Below are positions 35,295-48,157 of a DNA stretch of 64,000 nt, piece by piece. A program made the position numbers and the translations under genes. Position 1 is the stretch's first letter. Every line of letters begins with the position of its first letter. Source of the DNA: Burkholderiaceae bacterium (GTDB taxonomy: Bacteria; Pseudomonadota; Gammaproteobacteria; Burkholderiales; Burkholderiaceae_E); the NCBI GenBank assembly GCA_044235405.1, contig JBIIHU010000001.1:375-64374 (forward strand), in the 5' to 3' direction. The notes under the pieces were generated by a model that did not search any database, was not told the DNA's origin, and saw only the letters and a program-made list of their open reading frames with translations.

Positions 35295-38200
35295 GTGAAG
35301 GCCTTCCGGCTCTCGGGGATCGGCACCCGGCTACTCGGACTGGTCGGCCTGGTCGTCGCCGCGCTGCTCGCGGTCGCGGCGCTGGTCTTCTTCAGCTTCG
35401 GCCGCATCGAGCGGCTGGTCGCGCAGCAGGCGAGTGCCGAGGTGTCGTCGGTGCTCGCCAACGCGGCGCTGGGGCGCGAGCTGTCGCTGGTGCTCGCGCG
35501 TCTGAACCAGCTGGCGCTCGCCTGCCGCAGCGAACGCACGCCGGCCGAGCTGCTGCGGTCGCTGCGCGCCTCGCTCGGCCAGCTACGCCCCGATGGCCCG
35601 AATCCGCTGCTCGCGAGCGCGATCGGCGAATTCGCGGCCTCGGGCGGCGCGCTGCTCGACGCCTGCGAGCGGGTCGGCGCCACGCTCGCCGAAGCCGCCG
35701 CCAACGACCGCCAGCTGCTCGAGGTGCTCGCGGCACTCGAGAACACGGTTGCCCGCGCGCTGATCGAACAGACAATGGCCGCGCGCTCGGTCGACCACCT
35801 CGACCAGGCGATGGCACAGCTCACCGGCTTTCGCGAGACGGTGCTCCTTGCCGGCAGGCAGCTCGGCCGGCCTCAGTCGCCCGCGAACCCGGGCAAGCCG
35901 GCATCGCCGCCGCGCACCCAGCTGCAGGAGCTCGCGGTCCGGCTGCAGGGTTTCGTCAGCGCCACCCCCGAGATGAGCCGCCAGGCCACCGAGCTGCGCG
36001 CGCTGGTGCTGCGCCAGGTCGACACGCTGGGCCGGCTCGACGCCACGCTGCAGAGCTTCGACGACCGGATCGCCGGTACGCAGAAAGTGCGCGACGCGCT
36101 GCTGCGGCAAGTGGCCAGCCTCGACGGCGACGCCGCCGAACGCACCGCATCGCTCGATTCGACGCTGCAGCGGGTGATCCAGCAGAGCCGTCTGAACGTG
36201 ACCGCCGCCGTGGCGCTGGTGGCCGCGGCTGCGCTGCTGCTGGCGCTGCTGCTGATCAGGTCCGGCATCCGGCGACCGCTCGACGAGGTGCTCGCCCAGG
36301 TCAACCGGATTCGCAGCGGCGCGCAGCCTCAGCCGGCGCCGGCGCGTGCCGACGAATGGGGACAGATCCAGACCGCCCTCGCGACGATGTCGAGCGAACT
36401 GACCCAGGCCTCCGCCGAGCTCGAGCAGGCGCTCGCCGCGGCGCGCAGCGCCGCCGAAGCCAAGGGCCAGTTCATCGCCAACGTGAGCCACGAGATCCGC
36501 ACGCCACTGAACGCCGCGCTCGGGATGCTGAAGCTGCTGCAATCGACCGGCCTGAGCGCACGGCAGGCCGATTACGTCGCCAAGACCGAGGCGGCAACGC
36601 GCTCGCTGCTCGCGCTGATCAACGACATCCTCGATTTCTCGAAGATCGAGGCGCGGCAGATGAAGCTCGACATCGGACCGCTGCAGCTCGACGAACTCGT
36701 ACGCAACATCGGCGTGCTGCTCGGCGTCGTGCTCGAGCGCAAGCCCGTCGAGCTGCTCATCGACATCGACCCCCGGATTCCGCGCCGGCTGCGTGGCGAC
36801 GCGCTGCGCCTGCAGCAGGTGCTGCTGAATCTCGGCAGCAACGCGATCAAGTTCACCGCGCAGGGGGAGGTCGTGCTGCGGATCGCGCTGCGCGAAAGCG
36901 ACGAGCGCACGGTGCTGCTCGAGTTCTCGGTGCGCGACACCGGGATCGGCATCGCCCCCGACCAGCAGACCCGCATCTTCGAGGGTTTCTCGCAGGCCGA
37001 AGCCTCGATCACGCGCCGATTCGGCGGCACCGGCCTGGGCCTGGCGATCAGCCGCGACCTGGTGGCGCTGATGGGCGGGTCGCTCGGCGTGATCAGCGAA
37101 CCCGGTCGCGGCAGCACGTTCCACTTCGCGATCGTCCTGCCGGTCGACGACGCACCCGCCACCGCGGACAACGACGCGAGCGGCCTGCGCGACCTCGACG
37201 TGCTGGTGGTCGACGATCACCCGGCTGCTCGCGACGTGCTCGGCGCGATGGCGCGATCGCTGGGCTGGCGGGTCACGCTCGCCGCCAGTGGCGCCGAGGC
37301 GATCGCCATCGCACGCGAGCGCATCGCGCGGGGCGTCGCCTTCGATGTTGCCTTCGTCGACTGGGAGATGCCGGGCATGGACGGCTGGGAGAGCGCGCGG
37401 GCGCTGCGTACCCTCGCGGGAGCGACCCCGGCGGTGCTGATGGTGACCGCGCACGGCCGCGAAGCCATGGCGCGACGCACCGAGAGCGACATCGACGGGC
37501 TGAACGGCTTCCTGGTCAAGCCGATCACGGCATCGATGCTGCTCGATGCGGTGGTCGACGCACGGCGCGCACCGGGCGGCGTCAGGCGCGAGGCCGCGCC
37601 ACGACCCGCGCCCGTCCGCCAGCGGCCGCTCGCGGGGCTGCGCCTGCTGGTGGTCGAGGACAACGCGGGCAACCGGCAGGTCGCTCAGGAACTCCTCGAG
37701 TCCCGCGGCGCGCAGGTCGCCCTCGCCGAGGACGGTCAGCGTGGCGTCGATGCCGTGATCGCGGCCGATCCGCCCTTCGATGCAGTGCTGATGGACATGC
37801 AGATGCCGGTCATGGACGGGGTGGCTGCGACCGCCCGAATCCGCGAGATCGAGCGGCTGCGCACGCTGCCGATCGTGGCGATGACCGCCAACACCACCGA
37901 GGCCGATCGCCGCGTCTGTCTGCTGGCGGGGATGAGCGAACACGTGGGCAAGCCCTTCGATCTCGATCGCCTGGTCGACACGCTGCGCGCGCTGACCGGT
38001 CGCGGCGCAAAGACCGGCCCTCGCGCAACCGCGCTACCAGCGCTCGCCGGCGCCGCCTGGCGGGAGGCGGCGGCAGCCGGCGTCGATCTCGCCACCGCCC
38101 TCGGGCGCTTCGACGGCGACGTCCCGGTCTACGAACGGCTGCTGCGCAACGCGCTCGACGAGATTCCGTCTCGACTTGTTTCGTTGCGCACGCAACTTTC

Positions 38201-38762
38201 TGCCGCTGACATGCCCGGCGCGAGCGCGACGCTGCACGCGCTGAAGGGACTCGCGGGCGCGCTCGGCGCCGACGCGCTGGCGGCCGAGGCCGGCACCGGC
38301 GAACGCGCCTGCCGCGACGACGATCCGGGCGCCGCGGCTGCAACGCAGCCCTGCCTCGAGGAGGCTGCGCGCGAACTGCTGTTGTACGGCCCGAGGCTCG
38401 CCGCGGCGCTTCGCGAGCCGCCGCAGTCGCAACAGGCCCGGGGCATCGAACCCGGGATGGACGCAAGCGGACTCGAGGTCGCCGATGGGCTGCAGCTCGC
38501 GGACACCTGCGCCGATTCACGCCCTGCGGGCGTCGGTGCGAGCGCACCGGATGCGCGTGACCTGCTGGGCCGCCTCGCGGCGGTGCTTCGCGCGTCCGAC
38601 ATGCGCGCGTTCGAGCTCCTCGACGAAGGCCGCCCGGCACTGCTTCGCGCCGACCCCGCACTGCTCGCGGGACTCGACACGGCGATGGACGCGCTCGATT
38701 TCGAGCATGCCGCGAGGCTCTGCGACGCCGCACTCGCGAGCGTGGCGGCCTCCGGCGCCTGA
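35295..38762 (+). CDS. Hybrid sensor histidine kinase (periplasmic sensor, HAMP, HisKA, HATPase, two REC, Hpt)
   Basis: SHEIRTPLN H-box, NLGSNAIKFT, DTGIGI, GGTGLGLAI; REC Asp in FVDWEMP and LMDMQMP; Hpt LHALKG. Confidence 0.95.
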   Translation: MKAFRLSGIGTRLLGLVGLVVAALLAVAALVFFSFGRIERLVAQQASAEVSSVLANAALGRELSLVLARLNQLALACRSERTPAELLRSLRASLGQLRPDGPNPLLASAIGEFAASGGALLDACERVGATLAEAAANDRQLLEVLAALENTVARALIEQTMAARSVDHLDQAMAQLTGFRETVLLAGRQLGRPQSPANPGKPASPPRTQLQELAVRLQGFVSATPEMSRQATELRALVLRQVDTLGRLDATLQSFDDRIAGTQKVRDALLRQVASLDGDAAERTASLDSTLQRVIQQSRLNVTAAVALVAAAALLLALLLIRSGIRRPLDEVLAQVNRIRSGAQPQPAPARADEWGQIQTALATMSSELTQASAELEQALAAARSAAEAKGQFIANVSHEIRTPLNAALGMLKLLQSTGLSARQADYVAKTEAATRSLLALINDILDFSKIEARQMKLDIGPLQLDELVRNIGVLLGVVLERKPVELLIDIDPRIPRRLRGDALRLQQVLLNLGSNAIKFTAQGEVVLRIALRESDERTVLLEFSVRDTGIGIAPDQQTRIFEGFSQAEASITRRFGGTGLGLAISRDLVALMGGSLGVISEPGRGSTFHFAIVLPVDDAPATADNDASGLRDLDVLVVDDHPAARDVLGAMARSLGWRVTLAASGAEAIAIARERIARGVAFDVAFVDWEMPGMDGWESARALRTLAGATPAVLMVTAHGREAMARRTESDIDGLNGFLVKPITASMLLDAVVDARRAPGGVRREAAPRPAPVRQRPLAGLRLLVVEDNAGNRQVAQELLESRGAQVALAEDGQRGVDAVIAADPPFDAVLMDMQMPVMDGVAATARIREIERLRTLPIVAMTANTTEADRRVCLLAGMSEHVGKPFDLDRLVDTLRALTGRGAKTGPRATALPALAGAAWREAAAAGVDLATALGRFDGDVPVYERLLRNALDEIPSRLVSLRTQLSAADMPGASATLHALKGLAGALGADALAAEAGTGERACRDDDPGAAAATQPCLEEAARELLLYGPRLAAALREPPQSQQARGIEPGMDASGLEVADGLQLADTCADSRPAGVGASAPDARDLLGRLAAVLRASDMRAFELLDEGRPALLRADPALLAGLDTAMDALDFEHAARLCDAALASVAASGA

Positions 38763-38991
38763 GCACCCGCACGCAGCCACCGAGCCTGCTCCAGGGTAGC
38801 CCGGGCGCACACCCCCGCCGCGAGGCCGGCAGGCGCGCTTTCGGACCCGATGGCGCCACCGTGAGCAGGGATACCGCCGATCGGGCTGCGCCACGCGGGT
38901 TACCGTCGCGCCGCGTCTCGCCGTCCGCGTCATGCGGCGGAGGCGGCAGGTCCTGCGGGCAGCCGGCGGCGAGCGAATCCCGGAGCCTTCC

Positions 38992-39522
38992 ATGACCGGA
39001 ACCCTCATCACCGTCGTCCAGGGCGACATCGTCCGGCAACCCGACTGCGACGGCGTGGTCAATGCCGCCAACGCCAGCCTGATGGCCGGCAGCGGCGTCT
39101 GCGGCGCGATCCATGCCGCGGCGGGCCCGCGGCTGGAGCCCTATGCCCGCCGATTCGCCCCGCTGCGCGTGGGCGATGCGCTCGCCACGCCCGGCTTCGA
39201 CCTCGCGGGCTGCCGGCTGATCATCCATGCGGTCGGCCCGCGCTACTTCGACGACCCCGACCCGCCGATCCACCTGGCACGCGCGATGCACAGCGCGCTC
39301 GATCTCGCTGATCGCAACCAGCTGCAACGACTGGCCGTGCCGGCGCTGTCCACCGGTGTCTACCGGTACCCGCCCGAGGCCGCGGTCCCGATCCTGGTCG
39401 AGTCGGCCTTCGTCACGGCGCCGACGCTGAATCACCTGCGCGAGATCCGCTTCGTGGTTCCTGGCGAAACGATGCTGGCGCTGTTTCGGGACGCGATCGC
39501 CGGTCAGTCCGCCAGCCGCTGA
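38992..39522 (+). CDS. Macro-domain protein (ADP-ribose binding/hydrolase)
   Basis: QGDIV, VVNAANASLMAGSGVCGAIHAAAG, IIHAVGP and PALSTGVYRYP. Confidence 0.92.
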   Translation: MTGTLITVVQGDIVRQPDCDGVVNAANASLMAGSGVCGAIHAAAGPRLEPYARRFAPLRVGDALATPGFDLAGCRLIIHAVGPRYFDDPDPPIHLARAMHSALDLADRNQLQRLAVPALSTGVYRYPPEAAVPILVESAFVTAPTLNHLREIRFVVPGETMLALFRDAIAGQSASR

Positions 39523-39553
39523 GTTCGGACGCCGGCGCGAACCACCGGCGCCT

Positions 39554-39595
39554 CGAGCATGCGCCCGATCCGCTCGTTCATGATCACGGAGGTGC
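39554..39595 (+). repeat. Left direct repeat (copy of the acyl-CoA dehydrogenase 3' end)
   Basis: CGAGCATGCGCCCGATCCGCTCGTTCATGATC (39554-39585) is identical to 44770-44801 and extends to 42 bp with 2 mismatches. Confidence 0.95.
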
Positions 39596-41578
39596 GGGGA
39601 TCGAGGCTTGCAGCACAGGCAGGGCGCCCGTTGCCAGCCACTGATCGGCCAGCCATCGCGCGGCCTGCGGGGCGGCCACGCTGGTCCCGTTCATCGTTCG
39701 GACCGAAGCCGAGCGCGTACCGGCGGCAAGCACGCCGCGCCGCGCGGGGGATCGGTCGCCGGTCGCCAGCGACTCCGGCGCGGGCCGCGTACGCGAGCCA
39801 TTCAGATGCGGCCCGTCGGACGAGTAGCGTCGCGGTGCGGGATCCACGGCGCCGCGCGCACCGACGATATCCGTGCGGGCGCCCGTGGCAATGCCGCTGA
39901 GCGTCGTCGCTCGCCTCACATAGCCGGTGGCCGGAATCGGATCGACCAGCCGCGGACGCCCGCTGGGATCGAAGCGCGCGTACTCGGGGTCATCGAAGTA
40001 GGACTGGCGCCCCCTCGCGGGCCTGTCGGCGGGGGTGTCGGCACGGGCGATCCAGGCATGGACTTCCTGGACGGGATCCTCGCCGGGATTCAGGACCTCG
40101 ACCGTCCAGCGCCCCGAGGGGGCGGTCGCGTGAGGGACGACTGCCGGATCCTGGCTCGTCGGCGCGATCGTGAGTTCGATCGCATGGCGATTGCCGCTCG
40201 TCCAGTAGCGTGCCTGACCCACCGGACGCCCCGCCGCATTCTGCAGGGCGACGGGATAAGGTGAAGCGCGCGACGTCGTAGTTGTCAGCTGGCCGCTCGG
40301 CGAGGTCAGCTTGACCTGGACGCCGCCCGCCGGCGGATTGTGCAGCCAGATCTGCATCCGGCTGCACACGAGGCTGCCGGGCTGCAGTCGCCAGGCGAGC
40401 TGGCGGGACCCATGGGCGGGCAGATCGAATGCGGCGTGCGCCCGGGCCTGGCGGGCGTTGCCCGCGGCGAGCACGATCCGCATCGGTGTCGCCGTCTTGG
40501 CGGTCGCCCGGACCAGCCAGTCCATGAAGCGTTCGAGCGTCGATCCGCCGTCGTGGGGTCCCTCGTGCGGGCCGTAGCTCAAGGTCACGATGACCGGCAG
40601 CGTTTCGCCGTCTTCACGCATCGCCCTGGCCCTGTCGAGGATGAAGAGCAGCCCGAGCGCGGCCAGCGGGGTCAGCAGCGAAGCGGCGGGATCTCCGATA
40701 CCGGCGTTCGGCATGTCCACCGCGACGATCGGTCGATTCCTGACGTCGCCCCGCGGATCGTCGCCTGCGACGAGATCGAGCACATGAGCGCCGTGCGAGC
40801 GGCTTCGACCCAGGGCCTTGACCCCGGGCCGCGCGTAGTCCAGCCCGCCGATTGCACGGTAGATCTGATCCTCGTCGCCTCCCGTGCTCGTCAGCGCGGC
40901 ATCGATATCGGCCGCGCTCAGGGTTCTGCCCGGGGCACCCGGAAGGGGTCCGTTGCCTGCGCAGCCCTGCTGCCAGAGGTGGGCGATCCGGGTGCCACCG
41001 GCATGACGGAAACGCGCGTGCGCGAACGGAATGCCCTCGTCGATGACGCCGATGACCACGCGCCTTGGCTTGTCGGGAAGGTCAGTCGGCGCGCTCGCCG
41101 TTGGCTGCGAGGCAGCGTGTTTCCGCGGCGGCTCGAACAGTTCCGCATCGAGCAGCGGCCCGAGCTCGACGCTGGCGACGATGCGCTGCCAGGGCTCGCA
41201 GGATATGACGATGCTGAGGTGGCTGTACGCCACGAAGAGCACGCAGATGTCGGGCTCCGGGATCTCGTCGACTTTCGTGCCGGGGTCGCCGAAGCCGCCG
41301 GGAACCCGGATGACATCGTCACCTCGGAGGTTCTCAGGCAGCCAGTCGAGACGGGAGAAGGCCTGCAGCGGACTGAGCTCACCGAGAAATACGAGCTTAG
41401 CCAGCTCCTCGCGTCGAAACTCGACGAGCATCGGAAAAAAGGGCTGGGGCTCTGCCTTGTCCGGCTCGAGTCCGAGGGGCGCGGCGATCAGGCCGGGATC
41501 GCTCGCGATCAGCCAGTCGATCTGCGGCTGGGCGGGCAGGTTTTCCTTCGCCGGAGCGTCATCGAGGGGCTTCGTCAT
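39584..41578 (-). CDS. S8 (subtilisin-like) serine peptidase without a signal peptide
   Basis: VIGVIDEG (Asp), SHGAHVLDLVAG (His), AAGN (oxyanion Asn) and NGTSVAAP (Ser); long insertion between Asn and Ser; GAAAGG RBS. Confidence 0.88.
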   Translation of the reverse strand: MTKPLDDAPAKENLPAQPQIDWLIASDPGLIAAPLGLEPDKAEPQPFFPMLVEFRREELAKLVFLGELSPLQAFSRLDWLPENLRGDDVIRVPGGFGDPGTKVDEIPEPDICVLFVAYSHLSIVISCEPWQRIVASVELGPLLDAELFEPPRKHAASQPTASAPTDLPDKPRRVVIGVIDEGIPFAHARFRHAGGTRIAHLWQQGCAGNGPLPGAPGRTLSAADIDAALTSTGGDEDQIYRAIGGLDYARPGVKALGRSRSHGAHVLDLVAGDDPRGDVRNRPIVAVDMPNAGIGDPAASLLTPLAALGLLFILDRARAMREDGETLPVIVTLSYGPHEGPHDGGSTLERFMDWLVRATAKTATPMRIVLAAGNARQARAHAAFDLPAHGSRQLAWRLQPGSLVCSRMQIWLHNPPAGGVQVKLTSPSGQLTTTTSRASPYPVALQNAAGRPVGQARYWTSGNRHAIELTIAPTSQDPAVVPHATAPSGRWTVEVLNPGEDPVQEVHAWIARADTPADRPARGRQSYFDDPEYARFDPSGRPRLVDPIPATGYVRRATTLSGIATGARTDIVGARGAVDPAPRRYSSDGPHLNGSRTRPAPESLATGDRSPARRGVLAAGTRSASVRTMNGTSVAAPQAARWLADQWLATGALPVLQASIPAPP

Positions 41579-41593
41579 GGCGGCCTGCCTTTC

Positions 41594-42790
41594 TCACCAC
41601 TCCGCGGCAGCCGCCTGCCACAGCCAGTGAAGCCTCGAGGTCCCCTGAACGGCGCAGGTCGCAAAGCCACCCGGCACAGCGCCCGCTATTCTGTGGGCGT
41701 AACCCGTGGTCTGCCGGCTGCCCGCTTGCGGATCGAAGAGTTCCTGGCCGGAGAAGTCGCCCTGGGGCGGATACTGCGCGACATCCAGAGCCCAGGCGTC
41801 GACCAGGGTAGCACCGCCACCGGACGGCCTGCAGCGCGCGATGAAATACTCGCCGAGGCTCAGGCCGAGCAGCTGACCGGCGGCGCTGTCGATCGGGTAA
41901 TGGACGCCGGCCACCGTCCGGTTGATGGCGATGCGCGCCGCCTGACGCATGAGCAGCTCGCGCAGTTGCGTTTTCGCGCCCGCGCTGGCGGCCGGCAGGG
42001 CCCCGGTGGCGAGTTCGACCAGCACCCGAGCCACCGTGTACGCCTCGGTCGCGTGTCCGCTGGGCAGGGCGGCATGGATCGGGGTCGGGATCATCGGCTG
42101 AACCTGCGCCGAGAGCTCGTGCGGCCTGGGTACGCCGAGCGCATCCTTGAAGTTCATCTCGGCGTACTTGGCCAGGCGCAGCACCATCCCGATCAGCTCG
42201 AAGGTCTTCGGATGGCGCGCGGGCTGCAGCGGAAGCACCGAGGCCCAGAACGCATATTGGGGCGCCTTCTGCGCGAGGATCTCGCGCGCCCGGTCGCCGC
42301 GCAGGTCGGCATAGCCGTTCAGGTAGTCGAGTTGCGCCTCGAGGATCGTCGTCAAGCCCGCAGGGTCGGGCAGGCTGATGCGCACCAATGGCGTCCCGCT
42401 CCAGGCCGGCGTACCGCCCACCGGGGTGACCTCGAGATGCCAGAGGGTTGCGGTCCGCGAGGTCGCGTCGGTGCTGAAGTGGAGCCCCGACAGCAGCTCG
42501 GATTCGAAGAGCAGCCGACGGATCCGGGGATCCAGACGTCCGAGGCCGGCGACACCAAAGTTGGGCGGCGTGGGGTGAACCGCGGGGTCGAGCGCGCGGA
42601 CAGGCCAGACAGGACCCATCGGAGCCCAGGCGCCGACGATGGCATCGCGGTGCGGAATCAGGGCACCGGAGGAGGAGCCCCCCCGCCTCGATGCTCCGTA
42701 ACCCTCGTAGCCCTCGTAACCTTCGTACCCCTCATAACCCTCGTAGCCCTCGTAACCCTCGTAGCCCTCATAGCCTTCGAGTCGACTCAT
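41594..42790 (-). CDS. PAP2 / vanadium-haloperoxidase superfamily enzyme with N-terminal (EGY)9 repeat
   Basis: KDALGVPRP (K-x6-RP), PSGH and RTVAGVHYPID (R-x5-H-x3-D) are all present; strong AAGGAG RBS before MSRLEGY. Confidence 0.88.
   Translation of the reverse strand: MSRLEGYEGYEGYEGYEGYEGYEGYEGYEGYGASRRGGSSSGALIPHRDAIVGAWAPMGPVWPVRALDPAVHPTPPNFGVAGLGRLDPRIRRLLFESELLSGLHFSTDATSRTATLWHLEVTPVGGTPAWSGTPLVRISLPDPAGLTTILEAQLDYLNGYADLRGDRAREILAQKAPQYAFWASVLPLQPARHPKTFELIGMVLRLAKYAEMNFKDALGVPRPHELSAQVQPMIPTPIHAALPSGHATEAYTVARVLVELATGALPAASAGAKTQLRELLMRQAARIAINRTVAGVHYPIDSAAGQLLGLSLGEYFIARCRPSGGGATLVDAWALDVAQYPPQGDFSGQELFDPQAGSRQTTGYAHRIAGAVPGGFATCAVQGTSRLHWLWQAAAAEW
42698..42778 (-). repeat. 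Coding 9-bp tandem repeat x9 encoding (Glu-Gly-Tyr)9
   Basis: Units use GAG/GAA, GGT/GGC/GGG and TAC/TAT; every difference between units is synonymous. Confidence 0.97.
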
Positions 42791-42829
42791 GCTAACTCCT
42801 TCAATCCGGGGATCGGTGTACGCCGATGA

Positions 42830-44608
42830 TCAGTCAGGAACCCCCGCCAACGCCAGGGCCTGCGCCGCCAGCCTGCCATTCTCGTAGCCGCTGCTCGGCG
42901 AGCGGCGAACGAAATCCTCCACGCGAAAGGAGGGGGCCTGACGCATCAGTTCCCTGGTCACGGCGCGGGCCTCGTCGGCGGCGCCGAGATGCCACAACGC
43001 GATGATCAGCGTCCTGAGCGTGGATCCATGCGTCCGATTCAGACGCAGCGAGCTGCGCGCGAGCCGGACGCCGCGCTCATACTGTCCGGCGGAAACCGCG
43101 GCGGTTGCCGCGAGTGCCTCGAAGTAGAAGCGCAGCGGATCCATCGGCGAAAGCCGCATGGCCTGTTTCGTGTGCCGAACGGCCTCCCTGCCCTCGTCGC
43201 GAAAGGCGTGCAGGGTTCCCTTGAGGAGCCATGCCAGCGCGTCGTTCGGGTTCGCCTGCAGCGCCTGCGCATAGCGATCCTCGGCTTCGTCGAGCTGCTT
43301 CAGGATGTAGGTGTGAACCTGGCCTTCCACGGTCAGGGCGAGCGACGAGGCGGCATCGCGATCGAGCGCGCGACGCGCGCATTCCAGTGCTGCACGCCCA
43401 TCGGCCTGCGAATCATCCGACCAGCCCTGGGTCACACGCAGCACATGCCATTTCGCGAGCCAGGCGTGCGGCGCGGCCAGCCGCGGCGCGCGCTCGATCA
43501 GGGTTTCCAGCATCTGGTGCGCACGCCGGAAGGCCTGCGGCGAAATCCGATGCATCAGCGTGATACCCGCCAGCAGCAGCGTGTGGTTCTCGAGCGTCTG
43601 GGCAGCCTGCCCCTGGGCCCGCTGCAGTTCATGCACCATCATGCCGGCACAGGCTTCGTCGACGAGCTGCGCGGGCAAAGGATCTTCGCCGGCCAGGATC
43701 GCCGACACCTTGCCCTTCAGGCTCCCCGCCCAGGCAACCCGCCCGTCCCTGGTCTCGGCGAGCTCGGCCTTCAGCGAGAGCCGGTCGCCCTGCACGTGGA
43801 AGGACCCCGACAGGACATAGTTGGCCCTGAGACGGGTCCCGATGTCTTCCAGGGCGATCGTACGATCCTGCAGCGCCGCGGTCGACAGACGCGACACCAC
43901 GTTGATCTCGAGTGAACGCGACAGCGTCGAAATCACTTCGTCGGCGACGATCTGGCCGAGGATCCGGTGCGGGGATTCCACGTCACGGACAGAGAACGGA
44001 AGCACGGCGACCGTCGCTCGCAGATCGCTCGCAAGGTCCGTGATCGGGATGATCGGCGTGTCGACCGGCGGGCCGACCCGGAATGCTCGCACCGGCTTTC
44101 GGATGTGCTTCAGGTGACATTCGCCGAGATCCTCGAGGTCGGCGTCGATGTCGGGTGTCAGTTGATCGCGAACGTCCGCGGACACGACGGTTTCGCCCGC
44201 GCCGGCCAGCGAGAGCAGCCGCGCCGCGAGATTCAGGCCGTGTCCGTACACATCGTGGCGCCCGGTGATCAGGGGGCTGACATGGATGCCGATGCGCAGC
44301 CAGAGCCGGTACTCGTGGGCGATGCCTGGATGGGTCTGGCCGATTGCCCCGTGCATCGCGAGCGCCGCGCGCACGGCCGCCCGCGCGTCGGGGAACTCGA
44401 TCATCAGGCCATCGCCAAGACTCTTGACCAGACGTCCACCGTTCCCGGGCAGAAACCGATCGACCACGAGATCGACAAAGGTCTGCCAGCGCTTCACCGT
44501 GCCCGCTTCGTCGAGCTGCATCAGCCGCGTGTACTCGACCACATCGGCCATCAGCACCGTGCGGACCACCCGCGTGAGTTTCTCGGCGGCCGACAGGGTT
44601 TGCGACAT
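42830..44608 (-). CDS. Class III adenylate/guanylate cyclase-TolB-like-TPR protein
   Basis: LMADVVEYT and VKSLGDG (metal Asp, base-specifying Lys), HDVYGHGLNLAARL (Asp, N-x3-R), TVAVLPF TolB-like domain and several TPRs. Confidence 0.9.
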   Translation of the reverse strand: MSQTLSAAEKLTRVVRTVLMADVVEYTRLMQLDEAGTVKRWQTFVDLVVDRFLPGNGGRLVKSLGDGLMIEFPDARAAVRAALAMHGAIGQTHPGIAHEYRLWLRIGIHVSPLITGRHDVYGHGLNLAARLLSLAGAGETVVSADVRDQLTPDIDADLEDLGECHLKHIRKPVRAFRVGPPVDTPIIPITDLASDLRATVAVLPFSVRDVESPHRILGQIVADEVISTLSRSLEINVVSRLSTAALQDRTIALEDIGTRLRANYVLSGSFHVQGDRLSLKAELAETRDGRVAWAGSLKGKVSAILAGEDPLPAQLVDEACAGMMVHELQRAQGQAAQTLENHTLLLAGITLMHRISPQAFRRAHQMLETLIERAPRLAAPHAWLAKWHVLRVTQGWSDDSQADGRAALECARRALDRDAASSLALTVEGQVHTYILKQLDEAEDRYAQALQANPNDALAWLLKGTLHAFRDEGREAVRHTKQAMRLSPMDPLRFYFEALAATAAVSAGQYERGVRLARSSLRLNRTHGSTLRTLIIALWHLGAADEARAVTRELMRQAPSFRVEDFVRRSPSSGYENGRLAAQALALAGVPD

Positions 44609-44755
44609 GGTCGGTCTCAGGCAACGAAAATGGGATGTGGAGGGATAAGCCGACGCTGCCGATTCTACCCAGCGGGTGGGGCTGGATCGTCCATCCCCCG
44701 GTAATCCCCGGAGTGGCCACGACTTCCACGCGGATCGGCGGCGTCCCGTCGTCGC

Positions 44756-45916
44756 TCAGGGCCCCTGCACGAGCATGCGCCCGATCCGCTCGTTCATGAT
44801 CTCGGTGGTGCCGTCGGTAAAACCCATCACCTTGGCGGCGGCCAGGTGGCGGCCGAGCCCGTGCTCGTCGAGCAGGCCCTCGGCGCCCATCGCCTGAATG
44901 CAGGCGGCGATCGCGGCGAGCGTGTGTTCGCCAGCAAATTTCTTGGCGATGGCCGCCGCCATCTGGGCGTCGAGCCCGCGGTCGATCAGCCCGGCCGCGC
45001 GGTAGGTGAGCAGGCGCAGCGCCTCGAGCGTGGTGGCGACCCCCGCGAGCGACCAGCGCAGCCCCTGGTGGCCCAGCAGCGGCAGGCCGAAGGCCTCGCG
45101 CGAGGCACCGCGGGCCACCGCCTTGCCGAGCGCGGTCTCGATCATGCCGCAGCACATCGCCGGGATGTGGGCACGCGCCTTGTTGATCGACCCCATGGCC
45201 GCCCTGAAGGCCTGACCAGGCGCATAGAGCATCAGCTCGTCGGGCACGAAGCAGCCCTCCAGCCGGTAGCCGCCGGTGCCGGCGGCATGAATGCCGGCTA
45301 CCGCGAGCGCGGGTTCGCGGATGAATCCGGCCTGGTCGCCGGCGACGATGAAGCAGGCGATCCCGCGATCGCGCGAGCCCGGTTCGGTCTGGGCGAAGGT
45401 GAGGAAGACATCGGCCTTTGATGCGTTGACGATCCAGCGCTTGGCGCCGTCGAGCACCCATCCGCCGGCCACCCGACGCGCGACCGTGGTCGAGGCGGCG
45501 AAGTCGCTGCCACCGCCCGGCTCGGTCATGCCGGTGCAGCCGATCAGCTCGCCCGCCATCAGCGCGGGCACGAAGCGTGCGACGGCCGCCGGCGAGCCGT
45601 GGTCGGCGATGCGCGAGGCCGCGTTGTGCTGGTTCACCAGCGAGAAGGCGAAGCCGAAGTCATGGCGGGCGATCTCCTCGACCATCCGCAGCTTGGCGCC
45701 GAAGGGCAGGCCGAGACCGCCGCGCGCCGCCGGTACCTCGATCGCCGCGAATCCCTGGGCGCAGGCAGCTCGAATCGCCTCGCGCGGGAATCGACCCTCG
45801 CGCTCCCAGTCGGGCGCGGCGGGCGCGACCACCTGCGAGGCGAAGGCGATGGTACGGGCGACGAGCTCGCGCGCGGCGGCGGGCAGGGCGGCGTCGAATT
45901 CGGCGGTGGCGTGCAT
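44756..45916 (-). CDS. Acyl-CoA dehydrogenase family protein
   Basis: GMTEPGGGSD, LDGAKRWIVN, HQGLRWSLA, AKKFA, MGAEG and FTDGTTEIM. Confidence 0.93.
   Translation of the reverse strand: MHATAEFDAALPAAARELVARTIAFASQVVAPAAPDWEREGRFPREAIRAACAQGFAAIEVPAARGGLGLPFGAKLRMVEEIARHDFGFAFSLVNQHNAASRIADHGSPAAVARFVPALMAGELIGCTGMTEPGGGSDFAASTTVARRVAGGWVLDGAKRWIVNASKADVFLTFAQTEPGSRDRGIACFIVAGDQAGFIREPALAVAGIHAAGTGGYRLEGCFVPDELMLYAPGQAFRAAMGSINKARAHIPAMCCGMIETALGKAVARGASREAFGLPLLGHQGLRWSLAGVATTLEALRLLTYRAAGLIDRGLDAQMAAAIAKKFAGEHTLAAIAACIQAMGAEGLLDEHGLGRHLAAAKVMGFTDGTTEIMNERIGRMLVQGP
44770..44811 (+). repeat. Right direct repeat, inside the acyl-CoA dehydrogenase 3' end
   Basis: Matches 39554-39595; encodes ...TEIMNERIGRML of the intact gene. 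Confidence 0.95.
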
Positions 45917-45970
45917 GCTGTGCGACGAGGTCGGAGGATCTGCGGACGGTGCAGGCGCGGACGGGCTGCG

Positions 45971-46759
45971 TCAGCGCGGCCGCACGAACAGGGTGTGCAG
46001 GCTGCGGCCTGCCGGGCCGTCGGCATCGAAGACCGTCGTGTGCACCAGCCCGATCCCGACGCCATCGACCACGGTACGCGCATCCATCCCGAACCAGGGA
46101 CCCCGCGGCAGGCGGTGCAGGTTCAGGCTGAGATCGACCGGCGGGAAGGTGTGCGTGCGGACATCGAGCTCGGCGCTCACGCCGTTGGCCGAGTCGAGAA
46201 AGGTCAGCAGGCCCTCGAGTCCCCCGGTTTGCTCGCCGGCCACCAGCGGAATCCTCGCCCTGCCCCAGACCAGCGCCGGGCCGGGCGCCACGAAGCTGCC
46301 CCGCACGAAACGCCATTCGAGCGCGTGGCCGTAGGGGAAATGCGTGACGCCCGGGAAGAACTCGGTGGTTTCAAGATCGGGCAGCGGCGGGGGCACGAAG
46401 GGGTCGGGTATCGCGGGCGAACTGCCGACGGCCCGCTGAAGACGCCAGGCATGCGCCAGCAGCACCGGCTTGCCGCCGACCGACAGTTCGCCCTGCAGCA
46501 GCTCAATGCGGCGCCCGGGCCGCAGCACGCGCACCGCAACGCTGCAGGGGGCGACCGGCACCGGACCGAGAAACTCGACGGTCAGGCGCGCGATCGTCAG
46601 GTCCTCATCGCCCGGGTGCAGGCGCATCGCGCGCGCGAGCAGGGCGATCGGCGGCCCGCCGTGCTGCAGCTCGCGCGACCAGGGGCCCACCGTGGCTTCG
46701 GTGGGCTGCCAGGTGTGAACGCCTACGGGCAGGAAGAAGGCGTCGGAGAGCCCGGCCAT
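45971..46759 (-). CDS. Thioesterase-family (double hot-dog) protein
   Basis: GPWSRELQHGGPPIALL, ARLTVEFLGPVP, DSANG and DLSLNLHR. Confidence 0.88.
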   Translation of the reverse strand: MAGLSDAFFLPVGVHTWQPTEATVGPWSRELQHGGPPIALLARAMRLHPGDEDLTIARLTVEFLGPVPVAPCSVAVRVLRPGRRIELLQGELSVGGKPVLLAHAWRLQRAVGSSPAIPDPFVPPPLPDLETTEFFPGVTHFPYGHALEWRFVRGSFVAPGPALVWGRARIPLVAGEQTGGLEGLLTFLDSANGVSAELDVRTHTFPPVDLSLNLHRLPRGPWFGMDARTVVDGVGIGLVHTTVFDADGPAGRSLHTLFVRPR

Positions 46760-46777
46760 GCGCAGACGCAGGCGCCG

Positions 46778-47062
46778 CTAGGTGCGGCGAGCCGCCCAGA
46801 AGGTGGCCCCGGCATCGCCATAGCGCTCGGCATGGCGGGTTCCCCGCGCAAGCTCGAAGATTTCCCCGGGGCCGAAGCGGCGGGTATGTTCCCCGACGCT
46901 GAGCCAGAACTCGCCAGCGACCACCAGACCGCGGGCGTCGAAGGGGTGCTCGTGCTCCGGCGCCCGATGACCGGGCGCCCATTCGCGCACCACGACCTCG
47001 TCGTAACCCAGGCGTCGCGCCTCTTCGGTGTACTGCTCGAGCGTGGGCATCGGCATCGGCAT
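46778..47062 (-). CDS. Small cupin-domain protein
   Basis: REWAPGHRAPEHEHPFDARGLVVAGEF...FELARGTRHAERYG cupin motifs; the start may instead be 47056 or 47050. Confidence 0.8.
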   Translation of the reverse strand: MPMPMPTLEQYTEEARRLGYDEVVVREWAPGHRAPEHEHPFDARGLVVAGEFWLSVGEHTRRFGPGEIFELARGTRHAERYGDAGATFWAARRT

Positions 47063-47149
47063 GCGGGACCTCGTGTCGGGGCAAGACCAGATCGCGATAG
47101 TGCCATGCGCAAGGCTGGCTGCCGAGCGACGCCCGCCCGGGCTACCGAT

Positions 47150-47170
47150 ACTTCCGGCCTGGCCGGAAGT
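47150..47170. repeat. Perfect inverted repeat ACTTCCGGCC-T-GGCCGGAAGT
   Basis: 10-bp arms with a 1-nt spacer, between the divergent cupin and Rpn genes. Confidence 0.8.
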
Positions 47171-47233
47171 CGGATTGGCACACGAGGCGCCCGGACCGAA
47201 GATGGTCACGAACCCGCCCGCCGATCCTGCTCG

Positions 47234-48157
47234 ATGCCCGCACCCACCTCCCGGCCGCTGCTGCTGGACCCGAAAAACGATTTCGTCTTCAAGAAGCTGC
47301 TGGCCGACGCGCCGACGCTTCTGGCCGCGCTGATCAACGCCGTGCGCCATCCGCGTCCCGCGGTCACCGTGGTGGACATCCTCAACCCGGTCATCACCCC
47401 CGAGGAACTCGAGGGCAAGTTCATCGTCCTCGATGTCCTTGCCGAAGACCAGCTCGGCCAGCGCCACGACGTCGAGATGCAGTCGAGACCCTTCCCGGCG
47501 TGGGGCGCGCGCAGCGTGTATTACCTCGCCCGCACCCTGGCGCGCCAGCTCGATGCGGGCCACGAATACACGCGGCTGCGCCCGGCGATCGGCATACACC
47601 TGCTCGATTTCGCGCTGTACGATGACGAGGATTCGACGCAACAGGCCGCCTGGTGCTTCGAGCTGCGCGATGGCAGACGCCCGACGGTGCGCCTCGGACC
47701 GGAGCTCGAGCTCCACCTGATCGAACTGCCCAAGGCACGCCGACTTCGTCGACTCGGGTACGAGCCGGCGCTGGCGGGCGCGCTGGGCGCCTGGATCGAT
47801 TTCTTCGAGCACTGGAACGACGAGGAACGCATGGCCGGAATCGACGAACCCGCGGTACGGCAGGCGCTGGTGCGACTGCATGATCTCAGCGCCGACGAGG
47901 AGGCGCGGCGGATGGCCTTCGTGCGGATGCGCGCGCTGCGCGACGAGCGCGCGATCCGGCTCGGGGAACGCGAAGCCGGTCGTGCCGAGGGCGAAATCAT
48001 CCTGCTGCTGCGCCTTCTCGAGCAACGCTTCGGACCCATACCCGCCACCGCGATCGCTCGCCTGCGCCGGGCGACACCCGAGGAATGCGCTGGCGTGGCC
48101 GATCGGATGCTGCGGGCGGCAAGCCTCGTCGAGGCGCTCGGTCCCGTCGCCACCTGA
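47234..48157 (+). CDS. Rpn-family recombination-promoting nuclease / PD-(D/E)XK putative transposase
   Basis: DPKNDFVFKKL, LDVLA...DVEMQ, RSVYYLAR, LELHLIELPK, W..F and C-terminal EGRAEG/LLEQRFG module. Confidence 0.9.
   Translation: MPAPTSRPLLLDPKNDFVFKKLLADAPTLLAALINAVRHPRPAVTVVDILNPVITPEELEGKFIVLDVLAEDQLGQRHDVEMQSRPFPAWGARSVYYLARTLARQLDAGHEYTRLRPAIGIHLLDFALYDDEDSTQQAAWCFELRDGRRPTVRLGPELELHLIELPKARRLRRLGYEPALAGALGAWIDFFEHWNDEERMAGIDEPAVRQALVRLHDLSADEEARRMAFVRMRALRDERAIRLGEREAGRAEGEIILLLRLLEQRFGPIPATAIARLRRATPEECAGVADRMLRAASLVEALGPVAT

Follow-up and report, generated by a model that had tools for sequence, protein, structure and literature searches.

A stretch of 64,000 nucleotides from a Burkholderiaceae bacterium (contig JBIIHU010000001.1; hereafter the window, with positions counted from its first letter) carries on its minus strand three adjacent genes encoding a class III adenylate cyclase joined to tetratricopeptide repeats (TPR), a soluble PAP2 phosphatase and an S8-family protease. 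The phosphatase opens with nine perfect copies of the tripeptide Glu-Gly-Tyr, (EGY)x9, and comparison with its relatives established that an N-terminal tail of short tandem repeats is a hallmark of this PAP2 family, (EGY)x9 being its local version. The repeat unit differs between lineages and, on comparative evidence, co-evolves with a single residue (566) of the cyclase-TPR protein, referred to here as the transducer. The reading that we prefer, at slightly less than an even chance, is that the tail serves its own transducer as a multivalent, lineage-specific ligand, bound by the TPR/C-terminal module, and that the protease probably cuts the tail off.

Short tandem-repeat tails throughout the PAP2 family

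A genome scan with one genome per species gave 80 loci in Beta-, Alpha- and some Gammaproteobacteria and one Myxococcota; a further 80 metagenome loci were added, together with divergent cassettes reached via distant S8 homologues. Tails were found by reading the PAP2 frame upstream to its real start codon rather than from public gene calls. At least three perfect tandem peptide copies open the PAP2 open reading frame (ORF) in 159 of 165 loci, the other six being cut by contig ends or runs of N, and as a comparable array stands at the equivalent position in these 159 loci the array of the window is not a chance occurrence. The period is three residues in 154 of the 159 tails, four in four and six in one. 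There are 44 distinct repeat units in a median of 9 copies (range 3 to 19), among them GGA, GGF, GGV, EGF, EGV, SGV, EGY, GAA, GAF, DAN, EGA and SGA; GGL, GGI, SGW, SSL, TGI, AQR, SNR, SGH and GHT; and the 4-mers GGGA, GGAA and SAGF. With the bulkiest residue set third, 151/153 period-3 arrays have G, A or S in the middle. The tail is preceded by a short leader (M-S-x-L or M-S-x-x-G-P-E) and followed by a junction of the form ALIxxRDGIVGxW. With 972 clusters at 50% identity (E <= 1e-30) the PAP2 family is a large one, and its outer members have tails of period 4, 5, 6, 7, 9 and 12, for example GGFSQ, GGGGT, SGWSGL, GGGSGIx and 12-mers.

The initial annotation, which dealt with the window alone, had raised the idea of a G-containing tripeptide common to all PAP2 proteins encoded beside S8 genes. 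Comparison of these N-termini bears this out in that nearly all have a repeat whose unit varies, and in that Gly is present in the unit of 144 of the 153 period-3 arrays; universality fails, however, as DAN, AQR, SNR, SSL and NSF have no Gly. These figures bear on the possibility that the tail is a self-assembly element, which would cluster the enzyme through polyglycine-II or collagen-like bundles, amyloid or condensates. The frequency of Gly, the dominance of period 3 and a weak Pfam Collagen match (E 0.41) would favour it, but the Gly-free units and the existence of periods 4, 5 and 7 do not; Gly at every third residue is true of the window and not of the family. Further, the covariation described below is heterotypic, and neither EGY nor another repeat was found in the neighbouring cyclase-TPR and S8 proteins, so that a BASS/HRAM-like motif pair, as amyloid signalling pairs need, is missing from the cassette. 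We consider self-assembly highly improbable. The same neighbours, the polar units and the covariation with a TPR-protein residue also make a poor fit with the generic Gly/Tyr amyloid or condensate motif that had been proposed from the window.

Most database homologues span only 90% of the PAP2 query, falsely implying repeat-less proteins. Public gene calls often begin PAP2 downstream of the repeat; in Tritonibacter horizontis (locus L161, 3625-3998) the called PAP2 has 356 amino acids (aa), although (GHT)x19 stands at the beginning of the true frame, and the array is overlain by a spurious ORF called on the opposite strand. The family exposes a systematic annotation error, with starts called past the repeat or a spurious antisense ORF called over it.

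The repeat unit covaries with transducer residue 566

All alignment columns of the three proteins were scored against the class of the repeat unit using phylogenetically independent pairs on a neighbour-joining tree of the concatenated proteins. Among 1,346 columns, cyclase-TPR column 566 alone was perfect, differing in 9/9 contrasts between small/polar and hydrophobic units and in 0/28 same-class pairs, with the runner-up scoring 0.74. This residue is Phe in the window (codon at 42911..42913, minus strand) and falls just past the last TPR, in a C-terminal segment (residues 561-592, FRVEDFVRRSPSSGYENGRLAAQALALAGVPD; 42833..42928, minus strand) that also holds column 581. Tyr stood on the small/polar side in all nine contrasts of this first set. 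Within the clade of the window, F occurs with EGY, EGF and EGV, and Y with DAN, EGA and EGG; the divergent GGA cassettes L164 and L166 also have Tyr at 566.

In an independent metagenome set the rule fitted 53/58 loci. For the combined 146 loci, hydrophobic units were accompanied by W in 64 cases, F in 25, H in 1 and Y in 4 (W/F/H 90/94), and small/polar units by Y in 50 and W in 2 (Y 50/52); 14/16 contrasts fitted by comparison with 2/65 same-class pairs that differed (Fisher p = 7e-12). The two sites being only ~150 nt apart, linkage or co-transfer by recombination was considered as the cause of the signal; it was rejected, as the signal persists on a tree of the C-terminal segment built without column 566 (14/15 contrasts versus 3/60; p = 2e-11). 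Column 581 (A581 in the window) separated aromatic from aliphatic units more weakly (score 0.59), and no S8 column tracked the unit convincingly, the best being V626 (0.64). Nature thus supplies matched pairs of unit and residue 566, such as EGY-F versus EGA-Y and SGV-W versus SGA-Y.

The array of the window and its start codon

(Glu-Gly-Tyr)x9 is encoded on the minus strand at 42698..42778 and forms PAP2 residues 5-31. Directly read, the reverse complement of 42698..42790 consists of ATG AGT CGA CTC, nine 9-bp units and GGA GCA, the units following one another 5' to 3' as GAAGGCTAT GAGGGCTAC GAGGGTTAC GAGGGCTAC GAGGGTTAT GAGGGGTAC GAAGGTTAC GAGGGCTAC GAGGGTTAC; the N-terminus of the product is M-S-R-L-(E-G-Y)x9-G-A-S-R-R. 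Differences among the units are confined to the three third-codon positions (GAA/GAG, GGC/GGT/GGG, TAC/TAT) and are all synonymous, with a proportion of synonymous differences (pS) of 0.87 between units and of nonsynonymous differences (pN) of 0. The initial annotation, which had not given the strand, was accurate on the other points, namely nine 9-bp units with synonymous differences only, a repeat starting at residue 5 and an AAGGAG ribosome-binding site. Tandem Repeats Finder reported period 9 with 9.2 copies and, at higher identity, periods 18 and 36; the 18-mer made up of units 2-3 recurs exactly as units 8-9, which points to some block duplication in this array.

The Shine-Dalgarno sequence AAGGAG (42796..42801, minus strand) lies 5 nt ahead of the ATG at 42790. 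The leader M-S-R-L (42779..42790, minus strand) has the form M-S-x-L throughout the E/D-G-x clade. The repeat itself is predicted to be disordered, with a predicted local distance difference test score (pLDDT) of 35-43, and is followed by a Gly/Ser/Arg linker, GASRRGGSSSG (42665..42697, minus strand), and by the junction motif ALIPHRDAIVGAW (residues 43-55; 42626..42664, minus strand), a candidate docking or cleavage site that is nearly invariant in the PAP2 family.

The ATG at 42790 is the first start codon past an in-frame TGA (42832..42830) that also ends the upstream gene. The junction motif, ALIxHRDxIVGxW, precedes the next Met (residue 58); because this motif is invariant in the family, a start at 42790 that includes the repeat is required if the protein is made, and on these sequence grounds the (EGY)x9 stretch is translated. 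An 829-aa plus-strand frame (40340..42829), which lies opposite the S8 and PAP2 genes and reads the repeat as VTLVALVTFV..., was rejected as a gene and is an antisense shadow ORF typical of DNA of 68-70% GC. Separately, the PAP2 start is in frame with the cyclase-TPR stop in 37/70 loci (~23 expected), and the frame is open directly from that stop in 26 loci; in the window the order is TGA, 13 sense codons and ATG. This shared frame could hint at occasional read-through fusion or at an ancestral fusion.

Evolution of the arrays

Pooled over 74 arrays, within-array pS was 0.72 (saturated) and pN 0.038, the latter arising in part from Ser AGY<->TCN switches. Codon heterozygosity was 0.61 compared with 0.59 expected from the codon usage of the three genes (p = 0.04), that is, as codon usage predicts for wobble positions at equilibrium; selection for codon scrambling against slippage had only this marginal support and was set aside. 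The longest word repeated exactly within an array has a median length of 17 nt, and in close relatives the units are orthologous one to one, apart from rare indels of single units (L008/L009; L023/L026/L032). Judged by these patterns, the arrays are old and are not being homogenised, with each unit individually under purifying selection.

The array DNA of the window recurs unchanged in locus L167 and in contigs from three independent lake metagenome runs, and the PAP2 body varies among them (by 5% in L167). Locus L168 (JGI 3300005525 contig) is 98.4% identical to the window over 4,971 nt (39584-43960 region), its S8 protein and the C-terminal 376 aa of its cyclase-TPR protein are identical to those of the window, and yet it carries (DGY)x10. 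All of its units have changed E to D, the Gly codons have changed and there are runs of identical units (GACGGCTAC x3, GACGGGTAC x3). An entire array can therefore be exchanged, through turnover or recombination, with unit homogeneity kept; EGY and DGY unit alleles coexist in one species-level population, and the PAP2 gene appears from L167 and L168 to be a mosaic shaped by recombination. The initial annotation had argued for an old, selected peptide rather than recent slippage. Family-wide this stands, given the synonymous saturation, the retained amino acids and the orthology of units; a caveat comes from the L168 array, whose changed unit and identical-unit runs show that arrays can be replaced.

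Could the array be a neutral low-complexity spacer, or an element acting as DNA or RNA such as a slippage contingency repeat or a translation-rate leader? The variation from 3 to 19 copies among loci and the single-unit indels between close relatives would be expected of one, but the wobble positions are randomised, with no nucleotide conservation left, while the amino acids are perfectly kept even through Ser AGY<->TCN switches, and 9-base units are unable to shift the reading frame. We disfavour this explanation and give it very little credence.

Proposed role of the tail

In the reading that we prefer, that of a ligand for the transducer, each of the ~9 identical units would be one copy of one binding epitope, and a tail with a tiny middle residue would probably be bound in an extended or polyproline-II (PPII)-like form. 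Designed repeat proteins bind 4-6 tripeptide repeats in the PPII conformation, and a period of 3 with a very small middle residue is in keeping with an extended ligand of the kind that such binders recognise (PMC10115654). Binding of the tail could tether PAP2 to the transducer and/or gather several transducer molecules. Class III cyclases function as dimers, and transducers clustered in this way could set the output of cyclic AMP (cAMP). Such a model would explain why units are identical, why they are lineage-specific and why an aromatic pocket residue (F566) changes with the class of the unit. More tentatively, the protease may cut the tail at or near the ALIxHRDGIVGxW junction and so switch the phosphatase and/or the transducer; removal of the tail by the S8 protease is suggested by gene order and by analogy with zymogen activation by Csp proteases.

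Several observations weigh against this reading. The rule at 566 has exceptions, with SGA accompanied by W in L124 and L137, EGF or EGV by Y in L089, L094 and L097, and SAGF by Y in L077. There is a single strong partner column, it lies just after the annotated TPRs and not inside each repeat, and it distinguishes only small/polar from hydrophobic units; the E to D switch in L168 left the transducer unchanged. No S8 column follows the unit, and the link between protease and tail is one of gene order and fold analogy alone. Finally, the periods of 4, 5, 6, 7, 9 and 12 in the wider family mean that the PPII argument is not general.

The main rival, possible but on balance unlikely, is that the tail is a poly-pheromone precursor, chopped by the S8 protease into ~9 identical tripeptides or short oligomers that as free peptides would be the TPR ligand, in the manner of RRNPP receptors. 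Covariation at 566 would apply equally here, the S8 gene is a constant neighbour, cutting between identical units would yield one and the same product and the strain-level EGY/DGY alleles resemble pherotypes. There is also a parallel in the Bacillota, whose TPR receptors recognise short peptides that have been matured by subtilisin-type proteases, some of them from tandemly duplicated propeptides (PMC11343458). Against this, a signal peptide is absent from all three proteins and no exporter gene is nearby, the S8 fold is that of the Csp proteases (site-specific zymogen activators) with no tripeptidyl peptidase II among its fold matches, no S8 column covaries with the unit, and tripeptides such as GGA would be very small ligands. 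A bolder version, which we think distinctly unlikely, is a peptide-code signalling module of Proteobacteria: a triggered protease would free a private tripeptide 'word', singly or in short oligomers, a TPR pocket including residue 566 would read it into cAMP or transcription, the unit alleles (EGY/DGY; at least 44 units) would define insulated specificity groups like pherotypes, and copy number would set the dose.

The Csp-like protease

Gene 3 (39584..41578, minus strand) starts 15 nt past the PAP2 stop and encodes a 664-aa Csp-like S8 subtilase, with a catalytic triad of D180, H262 and S633 and oxyanion residue N374, all four invariant in 35 S8 sequences. In Foldseek searches its AlphaFold 2 (AF2) model (pLDDT 82) matched CspB (4i0w) with E 3e-21 over ~490 aligned columns, and 9pr9, 9pr8 and 6mw4 with E 1e-17 to 1e-19; the Csp matches span 490-660 columns and include CspA and CspC. 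The phmmer matches were 9sj6 and 4i0w. By these two methods the protein combines a subtilase core, into which the Csp-type beta-rich insertion is set, with a prodomain at the N-terminus. Tripeptidyl peptidase II was absent from the 50 best S8 fold matches and from the sequence matches. A tripeptidyl-peptidase 'fuse', appealing as the period is 3 and tripeptidyl peptidase II is itself an S8 enzyme, was rejected as the leading model on this account; moreover, an array can start at a distance from the N-terminus that is not divisible by 3 (Microvirga loci), and there are 4-mer units.

A protease of this type is also what would be expected if the tail were an autoinhibitory propeptide, masking or holding a PAP2 zymogen until its removal, with no recognition by the TPRs. 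In Clostridia, CspB activates pro-SleC by removal of its pro-region, and this precedent, the Csp-type fold with its intact triad and the position of tail and junction outside the folded PAP2 core are all in keeping with the proposal. The initial annotation had likewise raised an autoinhibitory segment removed by proteolysis, and the option is viable; as the sole role of the tail we judge it improbable, as it leaves the identity of the units, their lineage specificity and the covariation with residue 566 unexplained.

The PAP2 phosphatase

Gene 2 (41594..42790, minus strand) encodes a soluble PAP2 phosphatase of 398 aa, as defined by Pfam, alignment and the AF2 model. Its catalytic domain (residues 203-313; 41852..42184, minus strand) matched Pfam PAP2 with 39.3 bits (cut-off 27.2) and contains K215x6R222P223, P243SGH246 and R291x5H297x3D301; the three corresponding motifs (KxxxxxxRP, PSGH and SRxxxxxHxxxD) are invariant in a 36-sequence alignment, in which L44, R48 and G53 of the junction are likewise invariant or nearly so. 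In the AF2 model (mean pLDDT 84.7) residues 1-42 are disordered, the junction region is a low-confidence helix (residues 38-51) outside the folded core, and the confident core begins at ~80. Among solved structures the fold is matched by 7f18, 7f17, PhoC and PhoN (Foldseek probability 1.00, target TM 0.6-0.64). An acid phosphatase was also the best profile match (E 3.5e-12), ahead of vanadium haloperoxidases (E 6e-7 to 2e-3); the latter reached only E 0.02 or worse in Foldseek, and PF22778 (VCPO_2nd) gave faint precomputed matches only. The protein is thus predicted to belong most closely with the class A acid phosphatases rather than with the haloperoxidases.

This was informative with respect to a further explanation, in which the tail would be a self-modifying substrate resembling ribosomally synthesised and post-translationally modified peptides (RiPPs), the fused PAP2 domain modifying Tyr-rich cores that the S8 protease then releases. 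Short repeated cores fused to an enzyme beside an S8 gene do recall BURP-domain proteins and Kex2-processed fungal precursors. Tyr, however, is in the unit of 10/153 period-3 arrays and any aromatic residue in 50/153; GGA, GAA and GGV offer no modifiable side chain, the cassette contains no other tailoring enzyme, and haloperoxidases are far weaker matches than acid phosphatases. We find the explanation barely plausible, and the halogenation, cross-linking or dephosphorylation of Tyr by the fused enzyme that the initial annotation had envisaged is not supported as a general function, given the same counts of Tyr and the same fold assignment.

Two short patches of the PAP2 N-domain are variable among near-identical strains, at residues ~57-66 and ~120-137 (window 42380-42440 and 42590-42625). 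In addition, metagenome run X5 has a 12-nt insertion (CGCGGGGTCGAG) behind 42580, and the L167 product is 4 aa longer.

The cyclase-TPR transducer

Gene 1 (42830..44608, minus strand) ends 39 nt ahead of the PAP2 start and encodes 592 aa, comprising a class III adenylate cyclase, a TolB_N/FlgO-like domain in the middle and TPRs towards the C-terminus. The cyclase catalytic domain (residues 17-171; 44096..44560, minus strand) matched Guanylate_cyc with 36.7 bits (cut-off 21.9), its best solved match being 3mr7 (E 6e-23). Residues D22, K62, D66, R105, D119, N126 and R130 are present and mostly conserved, and comprise the metal Asp pair, the Lys/Asp substrate pair and the transition-state Asn/Arg; the Lys/Asp pair indicates ATP as the probable substrate. 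The TPR region (residues ~341-560; 42929..43588, minus strand) is the best-conserved part of the gene, with Pfam matches to TPR_19 and other TPR families at residues 398-560. In L161 and in L165, which has a (GGAA)x7 tail, the cyclase domain is swapped for a SARP/BTAD-like winged-helix DNA-binding domain, the TolB_N-TPR body being kept, and an output domain that can be exchanged in this way (cyclase or SARP-like winged helix-turn-helix, wHTH) identifies the TPR protein as a signal transducer. In L165 the SARP-like wHTH-TPR gene is in divergent orientation. Judged from their conserved residues, all three cassette enzymes look catalytically competent.

A self-contained cassette and its surroundings

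In the genome loci the cyclase-TPR gene lies directly upstream of PAP2 in 76/80 and the S8 gene directly downstream in 78/80, the misses being contig ends. No other gene is conserved around them, neither a tailoring enzyme nor a conserved transporter or exporter, and no signal peptide was evident in any of the three proteins (the PAP2 N-terminus being judged by eye). The three genes therefore form a self-contained cassette. PADLOC gave partial weak matches only (PycC with E 6e-6 to the cyclase domain, IetS with E 2e-3 to the S8 C-terminus and none to PAP2), and a known anti-phage defence system was rejected as the identity of the cassette, there being no informative system-level match in PADLOC or NCBIfam. 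A promoter and terminator scan of the locus gave nothing informative.

The GC content of the cassette is 0.67-0.68 and that of its flanks 0.72-0.75 (window 39000-45000), and flanking genes differ from locus to locus, which suggests that the cassette is an accessory, horizontally moving unit. A gene resembling macro-domain O-acetyl-ADP-ribose deacetylases (38932-39522, plus strand) is convergent with the S8 gene and adjoins one for a 1,155-aa hybrid histidine kinase with an Hpt domain (35295-38762, plus strand); both are kept in near-identical contigs only, not family-wide. On the other side, the C-terminal half (47200-48157, LLDPKNDFVFKKLLADAP...) of a plus-strand ORF at 45599..48157 may be an Rpn-type PD-(D/E)XK nuclease or a transposase-like protein.

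Comparison with known systems

The component families are ordinary. Full-text literature searches covering the three genes together, tripeptide repeats in connection with PAP2, TPR or subtilase, and the repeat peptides themselves returned nothing on the cassette or the repeats and, as far as we could find, the tail, its codon-scrambled perfection, its rewriting by lineage and the partner residue are undescribed. If the finding holds, they would constitute a sequence feature of a novel type, namely a short, perfect repeat whose form is kept across hundreds of orthologues and whose content is rewritten by lineage, with every unit identical as protein and its codons fully scrambled. The predicted contact of the tail unit with a residue of the TPR protein, with its natural swap pairs, also gives a testable handle on a widespread cassette.

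With class A acid phosphatases (PhoN, PhoC and the P. aeruginosa enzyme 7f17/7f18) the PAP2 protein shares three invariant motifs and its best sequence and fold matches, but it is cytoplasmic, without a signal peptide, and has an extra beta-rich N-domain (~80-140), a C-terminal extension and the tail and junction. The clostridial Csp proteases (CspB; 4i0w, 9pr8, 9pr9, 6mw4) provide the best fold match to the S8 protein, with an intact triad and a partner whose N-terminal pro-region is a plausible substrate; here, however, sequence identity is only 13-19%, the cassette occurs in non-sporulating hosts, a phosphatase instead of a cortex hydrolase would be the substrate, and there is a cyclase-TPR partner.

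Tandem, very short cores, some of them fused to an enzyme, occur in plant BURP-domain cyclases and in the fungal ustiloxin and phomopsin precursors cut by the S8 protease Kex2. The cassette differs in that no common chemistry is plausible across GGA, GGV, DAN and EGY and in that its enzyme is a PAP2 of the phosphatase type. G-x-x or G-G-x triplets are also found in mycobacterial PE_PGRS, snow-flea antifreeze and collagen-like proteins, but as long imperfect repeats; these are not N-terminal tails of enzymes, do not vary in unit among orthologues and have no co-evolving partner.

RRNPP(A) systems (Rap-Phr, PlcR-PapR, AimR-AimP) likewise place a TPR protein with a fused output beside a short-peptide partner, with lineage-specific co-evolution. 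In architecture, though not necessarily by descent, the transducers agree with such receptors (TPR with cyclase in the window; TPR with SARP-like wHTH in L161 and L165). Peptide maturation by S8-family proteases and the presence of several copies in some Phr propeptides are further points in common (PMC11343458). In the cassette, by contrast, 9-19 perfect copies of the unit make up the N-terminus of an enzyme (398 aa in the window) with no separate secreted propeptide gene, the hosts are Proteobacteria with one Myxococcota locus, the output is of cAMP or SARP type, the protease is Csp-like and encoded in the operon, and any free peptide is hypothetical.

The closest parallel for a tail bound as an extended ligand is with designed tripeptide-repeat binders (PMC10115654) and natural binding by ARM and TPR proteins, which also combine helical repeat proteins, extended PPII-like units and few specificity residues. 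The designed binders are synthetic, whereas in the cassette binding is predicted only, and one strong covarying site lies beside, not inside, each TPR. Should the tail prove to be a natural multivalent tripeptide-repeat ligand, it would be a counterpart of these binders from which orthogonal peptide-receptor pairs could be drawn.

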